Of a stretch of DNA of 64,000 nucleotides, positions 3,891 to 47,907 are shown in pieces (within the stretch, counting starts at the first letter, position 1; each line of letters opens with the position of its first letter). The DNA comes from a virus, in IMG/VR virus record IMGVR_UViG_3300030693_000012. One strand, given 5' to 3'. Below the pieces are notes generated by a model. The model did not search any database. It had not been told where the DNA came from and saw only the letters and a list, made by a program, of their open reading frames with translations. The position numbers and the translations under genes were made by a program.

Positions 3891-5324
3891 TCACAAACCG
3901 GTTTGTCCAAGCTTCGCCCACACCGCGCTCGATCCCCGGCGCTTGATGAGGCCGTCGAGCATGTAGCGCACCGCATCCGGGACGTGGTTGTTCTTGTCGA
4001 TGATGTCTGGCAGGATCTCGCTGGTCACCCGGTCCTCCGCATACCGATACAGGCCGAACTCCTCCGCCGCGTGAGGGCAGTTCGTCTTGTGAATGTGGAT
4101 CATAATGAAGCCGCGCAGGTGAGCGATGCCGTCCTCGACCGAGCCAGACCACTTCTCGGCCGCCGTGATGTTGATGCCCTTGTTCTTGACGTAGCTGATG
4201 AGCTCTGGCCGGGCAGAGTCAGCCTTCACCGGCCACTGGCGGTAGGTCGGAACCTTCTCGAAGGCGAACTTGTGGCCGCCAGGCAGCGTGTCGCCCGGCT
4301 TCGGCGCCACCATCTCGTTGATCTCGACGCCCACTCCCCAGCTCTCCGCATCCAGCCAGAGGTGTTCGCCAGCCATGCACTCTTTCCCGCCATAGATTCC
4401 GGCGCTCTCGGTCGTCACATAGCCGCGGATCATCACCAGGGGATCGTTGCTGAAGCCCCAGTCGACGCCATGGTAGAAGCGGGGCTTGTCGGGACTGGCG
4501 AAGTTCTCCAGCACATACTTGTGGCGGAAGATGACGGCGTGAGCGTGCTGCTTGATCTTGCCGTCCCACACATGCTCGGCGCTCTCTGGGTCAGTCGCGA
4601 AGAGATGGTCCTTGGCCGCCAGCAGCTCCTTGCTGATCCAGTGGTTCTCCCGCCAGTTCAGCTCCACCCTGACGCAATCGTCGGGCGGCGCGACGTGGAA
4701 CTTCTGGTATGTGGCGTCGTCCTCATTGCAGAGGTTGTACGTGATCCAGATTTCGGAGCCAGCCTTGCGAATGGTGGGGATGAGGACTTCCCAGGTGTCC
4801 TTGCCGATCGACTCCGCCTCTTCCACCCAGCAGATATCGACGCCCTCGAAGCTCTTGATCTTGGTGCGATTGCTTTTCTGCCCCAGGTCGCCCAGCCCCA
4901 TGAATAGGAACTCGGAGCCATTCGAGGAGTAGATGTGGCCCTTGGTGACTTTGAACCACGGCTCGAGACCGAGCGACTTGATCTGGTCGTGCAGGAGCTT
5001 GTGCACCGAGTCGGCGATGGAGGTCTGGTACTCGCGGGCGCAGAGAATCCGAACCTTCTTCTGCAGGCTTAGGACGATGAGCGCGCGGGCGACGGCCCAC
5101 GACTTCATCCCACCGCGGCCGCCCTCCATCACCTTGAAGCGGTGGGGGACGAACAGGAATTCGAACTTCTCATGGAAGTGGAGCGTCCACTGGCCTTCGT
5201 TCGGGATGGCGAAGCCGCCGTAGTGGAGCAGAACGTCGGTCCGCTTCACATATCCGCCGGCACGCTGGAAGGCCCCACTGACGTCAAGCGGCTTCGGCTG
5301 CTCCTCTGGGCTATCTGGGATCAC
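3891..5324 (-). CDS. terL: Terminase large subunit (PBSX-type)
   Basis: Walker A GGRGGMKS, Walker B WVEEAE, nuclease motifs GVDWGFSND and NNHVPDAVRY. Confidence 0.95.
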   Translation of the reverse strand: MIPDSPEEQPKPLDVSGAFQRAGGYVKRTDVLLHYGGFAIPNEGQWTLHFHEKFEFLFVPHRFKVMEGGRGGMKSWAVARALIVLSLQKKVRILCAREYQTSIADSVHKLLHDQIKSLGLEPWFKVTKGHIYSSNGSEFLFMGLGDLGQKSNRTKIKSFEGVDICWVEEAESIGKDTWEVLIPTIRKAGSEIWITYNLCNEDDATYQKFHVAPPDDCVRVELNWRENHWISKELLAAKDHLFATDPESAEHVWDGKIKQHAHAVIFRHKYVLENFASPDKPRFYHGVDWGFSNDPLVMIRGYVTTESAGIYGGKECMAGEHLWLDAESWGVGVEINEMVAPKPGDTLPGGHKFAFEKVPTYRQWPVKADSARPELISYVKNKGINITAAEKWSGSVEDGIAHLRGFIMIHIHKTNCPHAAEEFGLYRYAEDRVTSEILPDIIDKNNHVPDAVRYMLDGLIKRRGSSAVWAKLGQTGL

Positions 5325-11083: not shown

Positions 11084-11135
11084 TGTCTTGTCCTCGGTTC
11101 TCAGTTTGGATTTTTACTACTCTCTCACTGTCTAA

Positions 11136-11275: not shown

Positions 11276-11470
11276 TCATTCTGGCTCCTTCATTTGAGAT
11301 TCTGCAGCTTGGCCGATGGCGTCGACGAAGACCCGCGCCTCGTCGGTCTTGGGGAGGACGAGGATCGTCCACGACATGAGCTGGAACGCCACGACCATCC
11401 GCAAACCATTCCAGATCCTCCGCAGGGATTCGCGGATCGGGGTCGGCGGCCGCTGATTGAGGAGGATCAC
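11276..11470 (-). CDS. Small hypothetical protein
   Basis: Overlaps the stop of the J-domain gene. Confidence 0.45.
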   Translation of the reverse strand: MILLNQRPPTPIRESLRRIWNGLRMVVAFQLMSWTILVLPKTDEARVFVDAIGQAAESQMKEPE

Positions 11471-12057
11471 AACCGCTCCCCGCGAATGGCGAGACCACGG
11501 CGTCGAGCCTCAGTTAGCTCTTGAAATTGCGCCACCGCGTCCGCCGCTTTATTCACATCTGGATGGAGGGTGCGGGCAAGTTTACGGAATGCGCCCTCGA
11601 TCTCCTCGATGCTGGCAGAAGCTGGTATATCCAGCACCTTCCACCATGCCCGCCGAGCACCAGTCTCCAACTGCATGAATCCTTTGAACGCTCGCTCCAG
11701 CATCTCCGACGCTCCCCAGCGCTCGATCCCGCGCAGAGCTTCGATCGTCTTGCCGATGGCCTGAAGGTTCTCCGCGATGGTATCGAAGCGGTCGCTGGCG
11801 AACACCACCTGCTTCTCGTTTCGCGTGAAGTAGACTGCGACGCCAGCGTCGACCGGGTCGCGATCCATCCGCATCGTGCCGTCCTGCTTCAGTGGCACAT
11901 TGCTGGATATCACCATGGCCTTGCCGCCCATACGACGAACCTCGGCTTCTACGAACTTATGAGCCTTGGAAGTGGTCGTAGAGAAGTTCGACTCTCCGGG
12001 GTTTGCAGTACGCGGCCAACCTTCCGGCCATTCCAGGGGATAGGCGCTTACGCTCAT
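11467..12057 (-). CDS. Phage J-domain (DnaJ-like) protein
   Basis: N-terminal AYPLEWPEGWPRT; C-terminal WWKVLDI...AFRKLARTLHPDV J-domain with HPD. Confidence 0.9.
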   Translation of the reverse strand: MSVSAYPLEWPEGWPRTANPGESNFSTTTSKAHKFVEAEVRRMGGKAMVISSNVPLKQDGTMRMDRDPVDAGVAVYFTRNEKQVVFASDRFDTIAENLQAIGKTIEALRGIERWGASEMLERAFKGFMQLETGARRAWWKVLDIPASASIEEIEGAFRKLARTLHPDVNKAADAVAQFQELTEARRRGLAIRGERL

Positions 12058-12438
12058 CGCGCCCCCAGCAGCATTCCGCCCTTGCGAGGCAAGAGCGAGC
12101 GCTTCACAGGGATACGAAGGCGGCATCCAGCGATGACGACATCCGCCCAGCTTCCGCGGTAGAGCGCGATGCTTTCGGCTTCGACTTCGGTGGTGGTGCG
12201 TTCGTCGATCACGACGGCGCGAGCGCGGCGGCCGCTGGCTGTCGGGCTGACGAGGGCGTGATACCGGGGAAGTGTTTCTACGATCTTGAGACGTGCCATA
12301 AAACCTCCAGCGCGGGCTGCTTCTCTTTCCTCACAAGGCCCGAAGGCTGCGGAGAACGTTGACATTTGACGCCGTTCCAGACGGTCGCACCCGCTGAAGT
12401 GGCGGGAGCGAGCGAGGCAAATCACCCGCTCCCGTGGA

Positions 12439-13573: not shown

Positions 13574-13751
13574 GCGGCCACGCTCCGACCATCCAGTACA
13601 TCTTTGACGGCTCCCACCACCACTCGCCACTGTGAACCCAGATGCCCAGCGTGAGGACAAGGGCGATGAGGTGGAAGGGCGCGGCGATGAGTGAGATGCC
13701 CACGCCGAAGATAATCCAAAGAACACGGCGGAAGAAAAGACTAGCTGTCAA
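13554..13751 (-). CDS. Small membrane protein
   Basis: Long hydrophobic segment. Confidence 0.5.
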   Translation of the reverse strand: MTASLFFRRVLWIIFGVGISLIAAPFHLIALVLTLGIWVHSGEWWWEPSKMYWMVGAWPRATPRS

Positions 13752-14266
13752 AATAGGCCTCCCTTGACCTTCGGTTTTCCGCCTTTACTCTGGCGCTTCC
13801 ACATCAACTTGGCCCCTTCCCCGCCCGTCGCCAGGCGGGAGAAGACGTCATTCTGATCCCACGGCTCTAGATTCTCCACCATGAACGCGACCAGCTTCCG
13901 GAAGCCCTTCGCGCTCATCTTCCCCTTCCTCAAATTACAAGAGGCGCACGCCGGCACGAGGTTGGTGAGCGCGGCGAGGATCTGAACGTGTAAGCCGGTC
14001 TTGCCCCAGGCGAGGGGTTCTTCATGGTCCGGCACGAGGGTCGCGACGGTGAGCAGGGCGTTGCAGTAGGAGCATTTCACCAGCCCCTCCTTCGTGCCCA
14101 GCACCCACAGCAGCCAGCCACGGAACTCGGCCAGGCTGAACGGTAGACCACCCGACTCCTTGATGCGCTTGCGGTTCGCCATGCTGCCATAGAGAACCCG
14201 TGAGCGAGCATCGAAGATCGCGTCGATCTGGGGCTTGAGGGCTGCGCTCTTGCGTCCGCGCGTCAC
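13748..14266 (-). CDS. HNH endonuclease
   Basis: CSYC...DHEEP...NLVPACASCNLRKG. Confidence 0.85.
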   Translation of the reverse strand: MTRGRKSAALKPQIDAIFDARSRVLYGSMANRKRIKESGGLPFSLAEFRGWLLWVLGTKEGLVKCSYCNALLTVATLVPDHEEPLAWGKTGLHVQILAALTNLVPACASCNLRKGKMSAKGFRKLVAFMVENLEPWDQNDVFSRLATGGEGAKLMWKRQSKGGKPKVKGGLF

Positions 14267-21767: not shown

Positions 21768-21807
21768 TGTGTTTCCTCGTTTCTCAGTTTGGATAACCAC
21801 TATCTAA

Positions 21808-21848
21808 ATACTACTAAACCGGTCCGCAGAGTCAACAAAAATCGACAC
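21808..21848 (-). promoter_or_regulatory. Early promoter cassette (TTGACT-N16-TAGTAT)
   Basis: Shared GTGTCGATTTTTG block and leader TAGTGGTTATCCAAACTGAGAAACGAGGA. Confidence 0.8.
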
Positions 21849-22786: not shown

Positions 22787-22910
22787 GATGGTTCTCCAAT
22801 GAACTTGCCGGGGATCGGCCCCGGCTCCGGTTAGAGACACGCCAGAATGAGAGCGGCGACGGCCAGGATGAGGCCGAACGCCTTCAGGGAATCGGAGAGG
22901 TGAACCCGGC

Positions 22911-26435: not shown

Positions 26436-26765
26436 TCAGCTCCAGACGTAGAAGAGTAACGCAACCATGGCGATGGCCGCCGCAGTCCACTTTGCGATGA
26501 GGGGCCGATGGTCCGGATCGCCGGTGCAAGCGTGACGAAGGTCGTCCATCTCGGATCCGAAGAAGAGGGTTTTGCACTCGCGGCACTGCCACCCGCGCTC
26601 GACATAGACCTTGCCCTTGGGAGTCTCGATCTCGAGGGTTCCAGTCCCGGGCGCCGGCTGCACCCACCAGTACCCGTCGAAGTGACAGGATGGCTTACTG
26701 ATCGGGTCGCGGCCATTCCGGTGGTACATGCTGCATGAGTCGTATATCCCCAGGTCCTCGATCAT
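26436..26765 (-). CDS. Hypothetical protein with C-terminal TM helix
   Basis: CRECK...HAC and a hydrophobic tail. Confidence 0.5.
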   Translation of the reverse strand: MIEDLGIYDSCSMYHRNGRDPISKPSCHFDGYWWVQPAPGTGTLEIETPKGKVYVERGWQCRECKTLFFGSEMDDLRHACTGDPDHRPLIAKWTAAAIAMVALLFYVWS

Positions 26766-27052
26766 TGCGCCTCCGGGGTTGGCGTTTGCACGACGTCGAA
26801 GGTGAGGCGCACCTTGTTCTGCGCGCTGGCCGCTTGGAGGATGATGCGGATTGCCCGCGCCATGCGCCCCTCGCGCCCAATCACCCGGCCAAGCTGCGGC
26901 TGCGGAAGCCCGACCAGGAACTTGATGCCGGTCTCGGACTTCTCCACCGTGAACGTGATGTGGCTGCCCTCGTCCACCAGGAGCCCAACCGTTGCCGTCA
27001 CGAAGTCGATCGCGGTCTTCGCCGCTGCATCGGTGTACGTTTGCCCTTGCAT
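26762..27052 (-). CDS. khpA: KH-domain RNA-binding protein, KhpA/YlqC-like
   Basis: 96 aa; LGRVIGREGRMARAIRIILQAASAQNKVRLTFDV with an intact GxxG loop. Confidence 0.85.
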   Translation of the reverse strand: MQGQTYTDAAAKTAIDFVTATVGLLVDEGSHITFTVEKSETGIKFLVGLPQPQLGRVIGREGRMARAIRIILQAASAQNKVRLTFDVVQTPTPEAQ

Positions 27053-28292: not shown

Positions 28293-28841
28293 TCACGCTA
28301 CCCCCTTATGAGTTCGGCCAAATTTGACCGCGTGGATCGTTCCGTAGCCAACCCCGAAGAGATCGGCGATCGCTTGCAATCTTTCGCCGGCCTGAATCAT
28401 GCGGCGAATCTTAGGGATGTGATCGGCTTTCAGCTTCGTTTTTGGATGAGCCGCGCCAGTCGCATAGCGCGAGGGGCGATGACGGCGCTGGTCGGCGTTG
28501 TTGGCTCCAGAGCTGAGATACTCGAGATTCGTCGACCAGCAGCGGGCACGGTTCCCGTCTTTATGTCTGTGATTGACCTGCATATTTGGCGCCGGACGCG
28601 GTCCAAGGAAAGCTTCCGCGACAATCTGGTGAAGGAGCACCTGACGGCGGAGAACTCGCCAAGCTAGAGCGACGTTGATATAGCCGTCGGAGCGAAGAGA
28701 GCCGCGCACAAAGTCTCCTGCATGGTGACCTCGCACCGTGACCGGCCGCCTCAATCTCCCCCAGTTGCTAATCTCATATACGCCCTCAAACCTTCGGACG
28801 GGACGCCACTCCTCAACCTTTGGCTTCAGTATTCGCGACAT
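28293..28841 (-). CDS. NUMOD4-HNH homing endonuclease with C-terminal HTH
   Basis: EEWRPVRRFEGVYEISNWGR...LHQIVAEAFLG...VNH...NLEY. Confidence 0.9.
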   Translation of the reverse strand: MSRILKPKVEEWRPVRRFEGVYEISNWGRLRRPVTVRGHHAGDFVRGSLRSDGYINVALAWRVLRRQVLLHQIVAEAFLGPRPAPNMQVNHRHKDGNRARCWSTNLEYLSSGANNADQRRHRPSRYATGAAHPKTKLKADHIPKIRRMIQAGERLQAIADLFGVGYGTIHAVKFGRTHKGVA

Positions 28842-29076
28842 TGCTCCTCGCTTTCTCAAACGCCTCATCGAAGGCGGCCTTGGCTCCGGCATAACCAGCT
28901 TCTAGCCCGGTGCCTCGCCCGTCCAACCACATCCACTGGAAGTGCAGCTTCATCAACTTCCGCTGCTCTCCGTCGAGCAAAGGGAACCACTGCGCGACGT
29001 ATCGCTCAGATACCTCCGCCGCCTCTAATGCCACTGGGTCAACTACGACCGGCTTGCCCAACTCGCTTATGCTCAC
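28813..29076 (-). CDS. Hypothetical protein
   Basis: 87-aa ORF coupled to its neighbours. Confidence 0.5.
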   Translation of the reverse strand: MSISELGKPVVVDPVALEAAEVSERYVAQWFPLLDGEQRKLMKLHFQWMWLDGRGTGLEAGYAGAKAAFDEAFEKARSNVANTEAKG

Positions 29077-29426
29077 GCTGCTCCTCTCATCTGCAAGGCC
29101 TTCCGAAGAAGCGCCTCGAAATCGCTATCGTCTACATGGTGGTGGTTCACCGCGACCTGCACGGCACGCTTTGAATCTGCCTTCGAGTAGCCCAGCCCGA
29201 TCATCGCCAGGATCACATCCGCCCGCTGCGACCGGCGGGGATAGTCCGGCGGGCGCGGTGGCGGTTCCAACTCATGCCTCGGCTCGATCTTGAGCCCCAT
29301 CACCAGGTACCGCATCCGGCGCTTGAGGCTCTTGTTCTGCTGCATCGCAATGATGAGCAGGAAGAAGAAGACGAGGTTGCTTGCGATTAGCCAGGGGATC
29401 ATTTCGCACGCTCGCATTTCCGGCAC
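29073..29426 (-). CDS. Membrane-anchored protein with a RuvA C-terminal-like domain
   Basis: N-terminal TM helix; DVILAMIGLGYSKADSKRAV...FEALLRKALQ. Confidence 0.75.
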   Translation of the reverse strand: MPEMRACEMIPWLIASNLVFFFLLIIAMQQNKSLKRRMRYLVMGLKIEPRHELEPPPRPPDYPRRSQRADVILAMIGLGYSKADSKRAVQVAVNHHHVDDSDFEALLRKALQMRGAA

Positions 29427-30424
29427 TTCCGCCAGCCGCGCGAATTCACCCGACCATACTCAGCGAACGAGTGTCCTTTGCTGCAATGGGTTTTCCGAGC
29501 GTTGTGATGCTCCGACCCCTTGCGGTAGTTAGTCAGACGGCCCTTAGTCACTGCGTCAACGACGTTATCTCGCTGGCTCCCCCTGAAGAGATGATCTGGG
29601 CGGCAGCACGGCGGGTTATCGCAAGAATGGCAAACCTTCACACCTTCGGGAGCTCCGGCTTTCTTGAAGACGACCCCTTCCGCGTGCGCCTCGGTGAACC
29701 GCTGGAGGGCTGCCTCTTTGTTGGCGGTGCCAGTAAAGGTCCTGACCATGTGGAGGCCGACCGGCGTTGTGTCGCGGACGATGAATCGGGAGAGCGCCAG
29801 GCGGCGCTGGTAGCGCGGGAGGTTCTGAATCTCTATGCCGTCCATCATCAGGATGTCGAAGGCAACGTAGCTCCCTTTGACGAACTCGCCGTCGAGATGA
29901 ACCTGCTGCCCAGCCAACTCGGCCAACTCGCGGGTGGGAACCGGAATTATCTCGCCCTTGCGATTGAAGGCGTAGACCAATGTTCCATCCGCGAGGATAG
30001 AGATGCGGTGGCCGTCCAGCTTCTCCTCCAGCTCCCAGCCGTCATTGACGACATACTCGCCGGCTTGATCCGGTCCGATCGGAGCCAGCAGCTCAGGGAA
30101 GAAGGTGGGGGCGAAGCCAGGAACTGTCGGGTCGGGGATGAATGCCGCGCCGACCGGATGGCCTTGAACGCCTTCCAGCTCGTAGACGCCGCCGCAGCAG
30201 TCGCACTTTTTGCCGGTCTTCTCATCGACGAGCTTGTCGAAGATTTTCCGGGCAACTTCGTAGGTCGTAGTGGTGGGGGTTTTAGTTCCAGCCCTAAGCG
30301 GTGCGCCGATGGCCCCATATTGAAAGTCAACCGACCACAGCCCGTCATGCTCCTGAAGCTGAACGTTGTAGGATTTCTGGTGGCGATCATTCCGAAGTAC
30401 GAGCGAACAACTCAAAGGCTCCAT
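29399..30424 (-). CDS. WGR domain + ATP-dependent ligase adenylation domain fused to an HNH endonuclease C-terminal fragment
   Basis: DFQYGAIG (WGR); EEKLDGHR, LDGE, AFDIL, EGVVFKK (ligase); then VCHSCDNPPCCRPDHL...KTHCSKGH. Confidence 0.8.
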   Translation of the reverse strand: MEPLSCSLVLRNDRHQKSYNVQLQEHDGLWSVDFQYGAIGAPLRAGTKTPTTTTYEVARKIFDKLVDEKTGKKCDCCGGVYELEGVQGHPVGAAFIPDPTVPGFAPTFFPELLAPIGPDQAGEYVVNDGWELEEKLDGHRISILADGTLVYAFNRKGEIIPVPTRELAELAGQQVHLDGEFVKGSYVAFDILMMDGIEIQNLPRYQRRLALSRFIVRDTTPVGLHMVRTFTGTANKEAALQRFTEAHAEGVVFKKAGAPEGVKVCHSCDNPPCCRPDHLFRGSQRDNVVDAVTKGRLTNYRKGSEHHNARKTHCSKGHSFAEYGRVNSRGWRKCRKCERAK

Positions 30425-31176: not shown

Positions 31177-31549
31177 AGCGCCCGCGCATGCAGGAGAGTC
31201 CGTGGTAAACCCCGTTGGGGTCTTCGGTGACGCTCCTCTTCATGCCCATCCGCACCCACTTCTCCGAGAGGCTGGTTGCGGCGCCAGGCCAACGCGACTC
31301 GACCAGAAGATACGCCTCCGCTGAATCCGCATAGACCGGGTTGGGATAGAGCGCCTCACTCGACCAGCTCGTGCAAACGTAGCTGAGGCTGCGATATGTC
31401 CAGGGCTTGAACATCACATACTCGCCGCCGTACCAGCCAGCGTTTTTCAGGAACCGGAACTGCTGCGCTGTGAGGAGCGTCGGCGCGTGCGGCTGGACTG
31501 GAGGGACGATGAACAGGGATTGCGAGGCTCTAAGCGGTTTCCGTGGCAT
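31064..31549 (-). CDS. Hypothetical protein
   Basis: 161 aa, aromatic-rich, coupled to the upstream gene. Confidence 0.6.
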   Translation of the reverse strand: MPRKPLRASQSLFIVPPVQPHAPTLLTAQQFRFLKNAGWYGGEYVMFKPWTYRSLSYVCTSWSSEALYPNPVYADSAEAYLLVESRWPGAATSLSEKWVRMGMKRSVTEDPNGVYHGLSCMRGRYVLVGPPRIFLEGEAYWCESMRRYAREFDPTKDSYLG

Positions 31550-32366
31550 TCTGCTCCTCCCGCCATCTCAGCATCCCGGCGGGCGTCCAGTTTAGGAACA
31601 CGCCCCGGTTGAACTTGAAGACTCCATCCTCGATGCCGTGGATTATCGCCCACGCCTCCGCCCCTTTATCGTCGAGGTTGGCGTTGATGGGGACGGATTT
31701 CTGGCCCTCGTAGTTGTTCTCGTGCGGCTGCGAGAAGGCAGCCCAACCCGTCCTCAACGGCGGCTCCAGCACGCCCATTTCTGCGAGCAGCCGGCGGCCG
31801 TCCGAAACGCTCATCTCCGGAACCTTATTGTCGGAGTAGGTGAGCTTGAGGGCCAGCGCGCTAAGGATGGCCTTGCCTGTGGTGAATTGCCGGGTGTTTA
31901 GCAGCGAGCGCCAATGCCCGGCGGTCATGAGATCGATAGCGTGATGCCACTGGCCGTTCGTCGTCTCGAAGCTGAAATCGCCCTCCTCGTCATAGACCGG
32001 CTCCGTCCCGGCTGCCTCACACACGCGCTTCACCAGAGGATGGTCAACCAATAGAGGGTGGCTGATGTAGACGTTGCCCGGGCCTCCCTCCCTGCGCCGG
32101 TAGTGCATCGGGAATTGGAAGAGACGCGAGGGCAACCGCCAGGGGAGGGCGAAGTCCTTGTTCGACCCCCAGCCGTCTCCCAGATCCCCGTAGTAATCGT
32201 CCTCGTCGCGGAGGTAGCCCAGCTCCACCAGCTTCTTGCCGAGGGGATCGCGCCGAGCTTCCCGCTCGATCGCTTTCTGCTCCTCCTCCGCCTTGTCCTC
32301 GGCGGCGGTCTGCTGGTCGAATAGGCCGCCAAGAAAGACGGCTCGGGATGCTGCACTAGGTTTCAC
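31530..32366 (-). CDS. Hypothetical protein
   Basis: 278 aa; LPSRLFQFP...WHHAIDL motifs. Confidence 0.7.
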   Translation of the reverse strand: MKPSAASRAVFLGGLFDQQTAAEDKAEEEQKAIEREARRDPLGKKLVELGYLRDEDDYYGDLGDGWGSNKDFALPWRLPSRLFQFPMHYRRREGGPGNVYISHPLLVDHPLVKRVCEAAGTEPVYDEEGDFSFETTNGQWHHAIDLMTAGHWRSLLNTRQFTTGKAILSALALKLTYSDNKVPEMSVSDGRRLLAEMGVLEPPLRTGWAAFSQPHENNYEGQKSVPINANLDDKGAEAWAIIHGIEDGVFKFNRGVFLNWTPAGMLRWREEQNATETA

Positions 32367-32670
32367 TGGACACCTCCGCTTCTGCTCTGGCCGCGATGGA
32401 CTTGGCCGTTTGATACCAGTCGAAACTCAGGTCTCGAAGCTGCTCGTTCGCCGTGCGAATCTCCTCCATCACCGACTCGATACCGTACATCTCGGATTCG
32501 ATCCGGCTCCGCAACTCCGCGATGTCGTCGATCGCGTATCGCCCGGTGGAACTACACAGCTTCTCGATCGTCTTGACGCGGCCCAGCACATTGTCGATGA
32601 GGGGACAAGTGATCGGCGGGGGCTTGCGCTCCTGCTTCATGAGGTTTACTTCGTCGAGGAGGTCGCCCAT
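32356..32670 (-). CDS. Coiled-coil hypothetical protein
   Basis: TCPLID...MEEIRTANEQLR. Confidence 0.65.
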   Translation of the reverse strand: MGDLLDEVNLMKQERKPPPITCPLIDNVLGRVKTIEKLCSSTGRYAIDDIAELRSRIESEMYGIESVMEEIRTANEQLRDLSFDWYQTAKSIAARAEAEVSSET

Positions 32671-32807
32671 CACTCCGCTGGCTCAAGGGGGCCGGGGCAA
32701 TCGACGGCGCAAAGTTGAAATTCCAAGCAAGCTCCGCAATGAGGGCATACTTCGCCGCCGCAGCTTTTGCACGTCTGGATGTCGGGGGATTCCAATAATT
32801 CGGCCAT
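32670..32807 (-). CDS. Cys-rich miniprotein (45 aa)
   Basis: Manual translation MAELLESPDIQTCKSCGGEVCPHCGACLEFQLCAVDCPGPLEPAE; conserved leader RBS; TGATG coupling to the next gene. Confidence 0.65.
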   Translation of the reverse strand: MAELLESPDIQTCKSCGGEVCPHCGACLEFQLCAVDCPGPLEPAE

Positions 32808-32831
32808 TTGATCCTCGTTTCTCAGTTGGAT

Positions 32832-32934
32832 ACGCTGCCAGTGGAGGGGATCGAACCCTCACGCCGAACCCTGAAAGGCCCGACCGACGCTCTCTGTCAC
32901 TGGCGGCGGTTGATCGGGTTTCAGCCCGTCAACC
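32832..32934 (-). ncRNA. tRNA-like structured RNA with kissing-loop complement
   Basis: 7-bp acceptor-like stem GCCAGTG/CACTGGC, T-arm GAGGG-TTCGATC-CCCTC, no D stem; upstream hairpin loop CTGAAA is complementary to the TTTCAG loop. Confidence 0.6.
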
Positions 32935-32943
32935 ACTAAACCA

Positions 32944-32984
32944 ATACTACTATTTCAGGCAGCAGTGTCAACAAAAATCGACAC
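32944..32984 (-). promoter_or_regulatory. Early promoter cassette (TTGACA-N16-TAGTAT)
   Basis: Shared GTGTCGATTTTTG block. Confidence 0.8.
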
Positions 32985-46720: not shown

Positions 46721-47907
46721 TAGGTCACGACCGAAACGTTCGCGAGAAGCCCGACGGCGGCCGCGTTGAATGCGATCGAGATGTCCGCCGAGGAACCGGG
46801 CGACGGGGCAGTCCCGATATACAGGGAGGTGATGACGAAGGTCTGCTGCTGAGGCGTGCCGGGGAGACCGGCCTCCGCGACGAGCCAGGCGTCATAGACG
46901 TCCTCGCCGATCGCAAGCTCGTTGATGAAGTTGACGATGGCAGCCTGAATAAGCGGCTCCGTCGAACCCACCCAGCCGGGCAGGACAGTAACGTTGACGA
47001 TGGCATAAATCTCGACCTGCGCCAGCTCGAAGAAGTTGATGGTGATGGGCAGCCCAGACGGGTCAGCAATCGTCTCTGAAGTCGTGCCGTAGGTTCCACA
47101 CCCTTGGTCCTTCTCGAGAAGAATAGCGGTGGCGATGGCCGTGGCGTCGCCACCCTGCACGACGGCGCAGATCGAATGGCTGGGGATGCCGTTGCTGTCC
47201 GTGGTGGCGCTGTCGTTCTCGTACACCAAGGAGCGAACCACGCCGGGGATGTCAGCCACCGCGCCCATGATCGCGCCGATGGAGGTCTGCGATGGGATGG
47301 CCGTCGAGATAGTCTGGCGCTGGCGGACGGCCCCATCGGTTTCGGTGGAGGATCCGATATCGGAAGCAGCCGGATTCGTGATCGTGTCCCACCCGAGCTG
47401 CGGGGTGTAGATGGTAGTGATCGTGTTCGGCGGGGCGACAATGGCTCCGACGGCGGCGCATGTCACGGTCACGGGTATGGTTCCGGACGACGGAATCAGC
47501 ACGGACGCGGGCAGGTTCCAAAGATTCGGCGGGGTCGCAGTGTCCTGCGCTTGGCCGTTGACGATGGTGAAGCCAGGCGCGCCCACAACATTGCAGATGG
47601 CGGTGCTGTTGGTTCCAGCTTCGCGGGCCATGCCGTTTATCTTGATGGCGGTGTCGAGCTGGACGCCCACGGCCGTCTGAGGGCTGTAGGCATTGAAGGC
47701 GGCGACGGCGGCGACGTTCGAATCGTAGATCGCTTGAGCTTCGATCGCCAGGAGCTGATAGTCCTGCGTGCCGGTGGCGAGATACACGTCATCACCCCAA
47801 ATGCTCTGATAGGTCGCGATCTTCGAGTTGATGATGTCCTGAAGAGCGGGGATCGTGATGCCGGTGGGTGTGATGGTGGGACCGAGGGTCGCCAGTGGGT
47901 AGGTCAT
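46720..47907 (-). CDS. Baseplate J-like protein
   Basis: ETDGAVRQR...IPGVVRSLVYEND...PSHSICAVVQGG. Confidence 0.9.
   Translation of the reverse strand: MTYPLATLGPTITPTGITIPALQDIINSKIATYQSIWGDDVYLATGTQDYQLLAIEAQAIYDSNVAAVAAFNAYSPQTAVGVQLDTAIKINGMAREAGTNSTAICNVVGAPGFTIVNGQAQDTATPPNLWNLPASVLIPSSGTIPVTVTCAAVGAIVAPPNTITTIYTPQLGWDTITNPAASDIGSSTETDGAVRQRQTISTAIPSQTSIGAIMGAVADIPGVVRSLVYENDSATTDSNGIPSHSICAVVQGGDATAIATAILLEKDQGCGTYGTTSETIADPSGLPITINFFELAQVEIYAIVNVTVLPGWVGSTEPLIQAAIVNFINELAIGEDVYDAWLVAEAGLPGTPQQQTFVITSLYIGTAPSPGSSADISIAFNAAAVGLLANVSVVT

Follow-up and report, generated by a model that had tools for sequence, protein, structure and literature searches.

What is a partly tRNA-shaped piece of sequence doing between a strong promoter and the first gene of a phage operon, and can it be a tRNA at all? 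This question is raised by an insert in the leader of one of five near-identical promoter/leader cassettes in an uncultured phage. In short, the feature is real and moderately unusual, and it is a variation on the known theme of phage tRNA-like genes. Below, we describe its surroundings, its anatomy, and its resemblance to tRNA, and we weigh the functions that it might fulfill.

The phage and the copies of the element

The phage is myovirus-like, with a GC content of about 61%, and originates from peat metagenomes, where it is present in at least 24 runs. The window (the whole stretch of 64,000 nt that was analyzed) is part of a 66.5-kb contig. Its large open reading frames (ORFs) all lie on the minus strand, and its structural genes encode a portal, a terminase, a major capsid protein, a sheath, and a tape-measure/lysozyme protein. 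As no integrase family was found among the approximately 45 ORFs scanned in Pfam, the phage is probably lytic. Neither the INPHARED phage collection nor IMG/VR, as searched, contained a match to it.

Every copy of the locus that we examined carries the element. A 360-nt region around it is 100% identical in all contigs that have the flanking genes at an identity of at least 90%. The same holds for the contigs behind the members of the 90%-identity cluster, which are 100% identical across the element, apart from one unrelated member (L013). The element is likewise invariant in the contigs of every peat run examined, at a depth of up to 45x, and in the contigs of eight peat runs neither sequence variants nor insert-less joints were found. 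This identity among copies is silent on constraint, since the overall divergence of the strains is merely 0.1–0.5%.

Farther away, the flanking genes have relatives that stand without the element. The upstream 153-aa gene has relatives only at 35–53% protein identity, and their loci have no such intergenic element; it is also absent from the next relatives of the downstream 278-aa gene (36–39% identity). Pattern scans of IMG/VR and of genome and metagenome collections, in which we used the T arm plus acceptor, the promoter cassette, the loop architecture, the arm, and the hairpin as patterns, returned no copy, but just unrelated AT-rich phages or genuine tRNA-Thr/Met genes. With blastn against phages and plasmids, nothing was found beyond short matches to tRNA arms. 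In its default mode, ARAGORN detected no other tRNA or tmRNA genes in 64 of the phage’s 66.5 kb.

The promoter/leader cassette and its insert

On the minus strand, the locus reads in the order promoter, hairpin, GCC linker, 69-nt tRNA-like unit, GCGT, leader tail, and the ATG of a 45-aa ORF (Table 1). The promoter is of the sigma-70 type (TTGACA-16-TAGTAT, 32971–32944) and matches the consensus at 10 of 12 positions in a promoter scan. An 18-mer block, upstream of and including the -35 element, occurs in five minus-strand copies (0.03 expected), and the leader-tail motif occurs in three (0.02 expected). From the position of the -10 element, transcription is predicted to start at about 32937–32936, and no terminator was found.

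The hairpin and the tRNA-like unit are present in only one of the five cassettes. Their 99 nt are an insertion relative to the sister cassette at 21.8 kb, in which TAGTGGTT runs straight into ATCCAAACTGAG. The flanks common to both leaders are TAGTGGTT and ATCCAA(A)CTGAGAAACGAGGA (ATCCAA(A)CTGAG), and the boundary is ambiguous by one T. An initial annotation of this DNA had noted both the strong promoter just upstream and the 99 nt seated exactly at a junction of the sister leader, and we find both to be correct. The five near-identical cassettes thus offer a built-in comparison with and without the insert.

Table 1. Coordinates of the leader cassette, the insert with its parts, and the first genes of the operon (window positions)
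Feature	Position	Strand	Basis or remarks
Promoter cassette	32944..32984	-	upstream block GTGTCGATTTTTGTTGAC; -35 TTGACA 32971-32966; 16-nt spacer; -10 TAGTAT 32949-32944
Sister promoter/leader cassette without insert	21774..21848	-	alignment and motif counts
99-nt insert relative to the 21.8-kb sister leader	32832..32930	-	direct comparison
5' hairpin, 10 bp, one bulged A, 6-nt loop CUGAAA (32924-32919)	32908..32934	-	sequence and folds
GCC linker	32905..32907	-	predicted RNase P site 32905/32904, placed from acceptor G+1
69-nt tRNA-like element	32836..32904	-	sequence, Rfam, ARAGORN -ps, motif test
Acceptor stem GCCAGTG/CACTGGC	5' strand 32904-32898, 3' strand 32843-32837	-	7 Watson-Crick pairs
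Non-tRNA D-replacement	32897-32885	-	
8-bp arm (3 G-U), 6-nt loop UUUCAG 32876-32871	32884-32863	-	
GU linker	between 8-bp arm and T arm	-	
T arm GAGGG-TTCGATC-CCCTC	32860-32844	-	abuts acceptor 3' strand
Discriminator A	32836	-	no CCA, GCG instead
Leader tail ATCCAACTGAGAAACGAGGATCAA with Shine-Dalgarno GAGGA	32808..32831	-	conserved motif
45-aa Cys-rich (CxxC...CxxC) miniprotein gene, first of operon	32670..32807	-	ORF list, translation
104/105-aa gene	32356-32673	-	ORF list
278-aa gene	31530-32366	-	ORF list

The repeated cassettes presumably recall the PeSL-type mobile promoter/stem-loop cassettes of T4-like phages. Both are near-identical early promoter/leader cassettes that stand ahead of separate gene modules. 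The cassettes described here are, however, not homologous to PeSLs, and a hairpin plus tRNA-like insert marks just the one of them.

Another sister leader, at 11.1 kb, has the sequence CAGTGAGAGAG (11120–11130, minus strand) between the -10 element and the shared tail. It is similar to the 5′ portion of the tRNA-like unit (CAGTGACAGAGAG) and may be the footprint of a related insertion or deletion, or may have arisen by chance (rough p 0.01–0.05).

Anatomy of the insert

The 27-nt hairpin, GGTTGA-CGGG-[CTGAAA]-CCCG-A-TCAACC, starts 2–3 nt past the predicted transcription start. It forms in both the minimum free energy (MFE) and the centroid folds of 121-nt and 168-nt transcripts. We take its loop, with low confidence, to resemble lambda boxB (CUGAAAAAG).

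For the isolated 69-nt unit, the tRNA-like three-way fold (-30.1 kcal/mol) lies 1.6 kcal/mol from a rod-like MFE structure (-31.7 kcal/mol). The latter competes because the 5′ strand of the 8-bp arm can pair with either copy of AGGGTTCG, which occurs twice in the unit (32872–32865 and 32860–32853, 12 nt apart from start to start). Pair probabilities in the isolated unit are above 0.95 for the acceptor stem and only about 0.13 for the T arm. In the 168-nt transcript, the acceptor stem is missing from the MFE structure, whose z-score is only -0.96.

The hairpin, the acceptor stem followed by A, the T arm, the long arm with its TTTCAG loop, and the lack of CCA had all been described in the initial annotation, and each part was found again at the same place. 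The annotation had furthermore proposed an unpaired ACAGAGA in place of a D arm. That sequence is indeed present, but it is not strictly unpaired: a vestigial D stem of 2–3 bp can be drawn by ARAGORN with the -ps option, although this brings no added stability (-23.2 versus -23.6 kcal/mol).

Resemblance to tRNA

Two parts of the unit are those of a tRNA, namely the 7-bp acceptor stem with its discriminator and the T arm, which has G53-C61 and a TTCRANN loop and abuts the acceptor. We searched for this combination with a motif test (a 5-bp Watson-Crick T stem with G53-C61, a TTCRANN loop, and an abutting 7-nt strand that finds its perfect complement 25–60 nt upstream). Within the window, only this site passed the test, and nothing did across 300 Markov shuffles, in which T arms alone occurred at 0.08 per shuffle.

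The other parts depart from tRNA. In the D arm/elbow, position 8 is an A, the loop AGCGTCG has no GG, and U8, A14, G18, G19, and A21 are all absent. A tRNA would further have a 5-bp anticodon stem and a 7-nt loop (with U33 and a purine at 37), whereas the unit has the 6-nt loop UUUCAG on an 8-bp stem and a two-base “anticodon” (tc). It is not a tmRNA either, as there is no ARAGORN tmRNA call and no Rfam tmRNA match, and pair 3-70 is C-G instead of G3-U70.

The standard search tools agree with the earlier statement that this is no ordinary tRNA. ARAGORN gives no match by default, and the best Rfam match on a 211-nt stretch is tRNA (RF00005), with 19.2 bits versus a gathering threshold of 29. 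The alignment is confined to the acceptor and T arm and skips the other two arms (D and anticodon), the D region appearing as a local gap. The second match is mascRNA (RF01684), with 17.8 bits versus a gathering threshold of 42.5, and no Rfam family reaches its gathering threshold. Infernal alone is not decisive, since the tRNA match is missing from the list of a whole-window, all-family Rfam search at E ≤ 10. Yet the perfect acceptor and T arm, the non-tRNA D region, the 6-nt loop, and the sub-threshold scores together mean that the unit is tRNA-derived without being an ordinary tRNA. Judged from its sequence, the unit has a real acceptor-T minihelix of the tRNA type, and its remainder is no tRNA.

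Might the unit nonetheless be a working, if unusual, decoding tRNA that reads Glu (UUC) or opal (UCA) in spite of its minimal D arm and an anticodon loop of 6 nt? With the -ps option, ARAGORN does draw a cloverleaf, labeled “tRNA-?(Glu|SeC)(tc)”, in which the D stem is vestigial, the anticodon stem has 5 bp, and the loop has 6 nt. In addition, 35 nt of the middle region, from the anticodon arm to the T arm, are 86% identical to the tRNA-Glu(UUC) of Pectobacterium phage POP15. This match, the only one for the middle region, is marginal, however (E = 0.08, picked from 50,697 phage records), and ARAGORN -ps has a background of 0.33 false hits per shuffled window. Its further call in the window, a 91-nt “tRNA-Gln(ctg)” (47646–47736, plus strand) that lies opposite the coding strand of a structural gene, is, given that background, almost certainly a false positive. 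The shortened loop, the absent elbow nucleotides, and the Rfam score speak against decoding as well, and so does the use of TGA as a stop, for example in the 45-aa gene. We consider a decoding tRNA very unlikely.

Origin of the ends and the middle

The ends of the unit can be traced further than its middle. A metagenome scan for the same acceptor stem and T loop around any middle of 30–48 nt yielded 35 loci, all but one of which (34/35) are ordinary tRNA-Thr(CGU/UGU) or tRNA-Met(CAU) genes. Genes for tRNA-Thr(UGU) (L059 and L051) match the unit at every position of its 7-nt 5′ acceptor strand and of the 22 nt that lead up to the discriminator, L059 being from a Verrucomicrobiota MAG in the genome collection; the discriminator itself is unlike that of tRNA-Thr genes. 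No host can be inferred from this match, because the acceptor is found in just 2 of 401 sampled Verrucomicrobiota genomes. The middle 37 nt align collinearly to tRNA-Thr genes no better than shuffles do (p about 0.6). An 11-mer, CGTCGGTCGGG, is common to the unit and the variable/T-stem region of L059, but off-register (5/5000 shuffles). By these comparisons, the ends of the element are those of a tRNA, most nearly tRNA-Thr, and enclose a core that is rearranged or not of tRNA type.

Identity to the 3′ 22 nt of a tRNA gene before the discriminator is reminiscent of an attP-type tRNA fragment, and the clean 99-nt insertion relative to the sister cassette could be the work of a small mobile (MITE-like) element, all the more so in a phage with several homing-endonuclease genes. 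A small mobile RNA element had in fact been among the initial suggestions. An attP site, however, would be expected to have an adjacent integrase and identity to the 3′ end of a host tRNA only. Here, no integrase was found among the ORFs scanned in Pfam, the discriminator differs from that of tRNA-Thr genes, and the 5′ acceptor strand, which attP does not need, is present. Of the marks of a MITE-like element (multiple copies, terminal inverted repeats, target-site duplication, and polymorphism), none is seen: the insert occurs as a single copy in the window, with no terminal repeats or target duplication, the collections contain no further copies, and the eight runs show no insert-less variant. 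The mobile-element suggestion is not supported by these results, and either of these origins seems highly improbable to us.

A degenerate tRNA-Thr-like gene was also encountered elsewhere. The phage-like metagenome contig L022 (JACXTT010006373.1) has an array of 21 tRNA genes, and at its head (the 4327–4500 region) lies a 67-nt non-canonical tRNA-Thr(UGU)-like gene that has the same acceptor stem and a mini D arm of 4 bp/3 nt and is uncalled by ARAGORN. The stretch that comes next resembles the acceptor piece of a two-piece alpha-tmRNA (12.7 bits).

The insert could then be an inert relic, that is, a former tRNA-Thr-like phage tRNA gene whose D/anticodon region was scrambled by deletion, duplication, or recombination and which has no selected function, even if RNase P perhaps still cuts it. 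Such a history would fit an element that lies below the threshold of every tRNA detector, shares an off-register 11-mer with a tRNA-Thr(UGU) gene, and contains a AGGGTTCG repeat that hints at internal rearrangement. The head of the L022 array provides a comparably degenerate example in another phage-like contig, and constraint is not evident at the low divergence of the strains. On the other hand, a lone decaying tRNA exactly inside a cassette, in a phage with no other tRNA genes in 64 of 66.5 kb, needs a special history. Moreover, the minihelix is intact at 31 of 31 positions (12 stem pairs plus the T loop), beside a middle of 37 nt that is unrecognizable. This asymmetry is hard to obtain by uniform neutral decay and is our main argument for selection over decay, although one rearrangement inside a tRNA that had worked until recently could also leave an intact minihelix with a foreign middle. 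We regard the relic as the main rival of the reading preferred below, a serious one though less likely than not. Even a mere relic would document promoter/leader cassettes as hot spots of insertion and recombination in an unexplored lineage of peat phages.

Complementarity of the two loops

The loops of the hairpin (CTGAAA) and of the long arm (TTTCAG) are exact reverse complements. The initial annotation had read this as a perfect 6-bp kissing loop; the complementarity is real but not statistically compelling, as the window contains five complementary pairs of 6-nt loops versus about 1.35 expected (4-bp, G-U-tolerant stems within 120 nt of each other). If a CC bulge is allowed, hairpin and arm can pair over 13 bp (-18 to -23 kcal/mol). 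As a partner of the arm, the hairpin reaches -18.2 kcal/mol versus a window mean of -13.3 (sd 3.3), which puts it only about 1.5 sd ahead of an average 30-nt site, and many sites in the window of this GC-rich genome out-score it. The top site for the arm (22868–22886, minus strand; -27.9 kcal/mol) pairs over 17 bp, with four G-U pairs and one bulge, where a small hydrophobic ORF begins. Its score is no outlier in the distribution, and a unique antisense target of the arm was not found in the window. Given the number of complementary pairs and the rank of the hairpin as a partner, the kiss alone is weak evidence, and we treat it as a hypothesis of low probability.

Loop pairing would nevertheless be the heart of a riboregulator that acts in cis or in trans through CUGAAA-UUUCAG, with the arm also directed against a CUGAGA in the leader, and that gates either the processing of the transcript or the translation of the 45-aa gene. 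C4 of phages P1/P7 and CI of phage P4 are precedents. These are small structured leader RNAs in which an acceptor-like terminal stem is a substrate of RNase P and in which the loops are complementary to up- and downstream sites on the same transcript. The element is similarly embedded in a leader downstream of an early promoter, and its two loops are complementary within the transcript, exactly over 6 nt and in extended form over 13 bp. The CUGAGA is part of the leader tail and lies beside the Shine-Dalgarno sequence in three leaders; its possible pairing with the UUUCAG loop has five Watson-Crick pairs and one G-U pair and is not statistically supported. Unlike C4 and CI, however, the element has a true tRNA T arm, gives no Rfam match to these RNAs at E ≤ 10 (211-nt stretch), and pairs with its target over only those 6 nt (up to 13 bp with the bulge), which is not above the background of the window. 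Geometry also seems unfavorable, in that the hairpin of an L-shaped fold would hang on a 3-nt tether at the acceptor end, a long way from the anticodon-type loop. On balance, we think regulation by a kiss improbable.

Proposed processing and function

Our preferred reading, to which we give about an even chance, is that the insert joins an upstream hairpin to a tRNA-like element that derives from a tRNA but does not decode. The insert would supply the ~100 nt with which the transcript of an early operon begins, and RNase P/RNase Z would excise the element from it. Transcription from the strong promoter would begin 2–3 nt before the hairpin, and the acceptor-T minihelix would fold during transcription. 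Host RNase P would then cleave at 32905|32904, and RNase Z, or RNase E together with exonucleases, would cleave after A32836. The expected products are a hairpin with a 5′-triphosphate, a stable tRNA-shaped RNA of ~69 nt that could receive CCA, and an mRNA with a 5′-monophosphate, whose leader would hardly differ from the uninterrupted leaders of the sister cassettes.

In a tRNA, what RNase P, RNase Z, and the CCA-adding enzyme read is the acceptor-T minihelix. This is what makes a “processed tRNA mimic” a fair working model. Since the element, with its 6-nt loop and without a D-arm/elbow core, cannot decode, its role would have to be that of a processing signal, a decoy, or both. More precisely, it may have been selected as a signal for processing or stability of the operon, as a tRNA look-alike that acts as a decoy for tRNA-directed host factors, or as a combination of the two. 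That RNase P also processes phage RNAs other than tRNA is exemplified by M3 RNA and the C4 antisense RNA (review PMC11143913). The reading is further favored by the promoter directly upstream, the lack of a terminator, the Shine-Dalgarno sequence and 45-aa ORF that follow, and a three-way fold close to the MFE of the isolated unit. It is weakened by the acceptor stem missing from the fold of the 168-nt transcript, by the low pair probability of the T arm, and by the whole-window Rfam search.

How does the element then compare with the RNAs that it resembles? With phage tRNA genes or pseudogenes co-transcribed with mRNAs (RF00005), it shares the 7-bp acceptor stem, the canonical T arm, the discriminator, an upstream promoter, downstream protein genes, and ends identical to those of tRNA-Thr. 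In contrast to them, it is devoid of the D arm/elbow nucleotides and of CCA, has a 6-nt loop on an 8-bp arm, and stays below threshold in Infernal and in default ARAGORN. RNAs of the mascRNA/MALAT1 type are a eukaryotic family, whose members RNase P and RNase Z release from longer transcripts. In them, too, a minihelix of acceptor and T arm is joined to a D/anticodon part that is non-canonical, but given their eukaryotic nature and a score far under the gathering threshold, this likeness is an analogy only. By analogy, the element would work most like the leader-embedded, RNase P-processed phage RNAs (C4 and CI) and like mascRNA-type excision, while it is a member of none of these groups, as their Rfam models gave no match.

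A more elaborate possibility, which we deem unlikely, is a self-masking tRNA mimic. In the precursor, the hairpin loop would display a GAA/UGA “codon” followed by an A, much like a T-box specifier, and would kiss the anticodon-type loop. The RNase P cut would part the two loops and free a CCA-tailed, D-armless tRNA look-alike. In trans, this RNA could act on the CUGAGA of the sister leaders, thus coordinating the five cassettes, or serve as a decoy for host defenses that target tRNA. If true, this would represent a new class of phage leader-embedded riboregulator, parallel to C4 and CI but built from a tRNA.

The simpler reading of a processed, non-decoding element is of interest in its own right. 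If it is processed as proposed, the tRNA-maturation machinery of the host would reshape the 5′ end of an mRNA and yield a small RNA in one step. Phage tRNA genes are reportedly being reinterpreted as counter-defense, with the proposal that variants of the anticodon loop evade host tRNA nucleases. An element reduced to the acceptor-T minihelix and placed in a strong early leader would make a natural tRNA mimic of the minimal kind.

The downstream operon and the early region

The 45-aa miniprotein gene, which follows directly upon the leader tail, is also called in the peat contigs L009 and L011. The 45-, 105-, 278-, 161-, and 153-aa proteins have no family match in Pfam, PHROGs, PADLOC, or NCBIfam, and among the proteins downstream of the insert there is no match to a defense or nuclease family. 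The 278-aa protein belongs to a small unannotated family with the invariant motifs HPxxVxxV, HAxDLxxxGHWR, and GIEDG; its AlphaFold model is poor (pLDDT 65), and Foldseek gave no PDB match for it. A likeness to RegA-type translation repressors, which surfaced among the searches for operon functions (Atlas feature score 0.85), lies within the range of chance and was rejected.

Selfish elements abound in the early region. One ORF (29399–30424, minus strand) encodes an ATP-dependent DNA/RNA ligase-like protein in which a WGR and a ligase adenylation domain are joined to a C-terminal HNH_3 homing-endonuclease domain. Genes for HNH-type homing endonucleases, one with NUMOD4 plus HNH_3 and one with a weak HNH match, are located at 28293–28892 and 13748–14266 on the minus strand. 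Further Pfam matches of the early region, also on the minus strand, are a KhpA-type KH-domain protein, a RuvA C-terminal-domain protein, and a DnaJ J-domain protein (26762–27052, 29073–29426, and 11467–12126).
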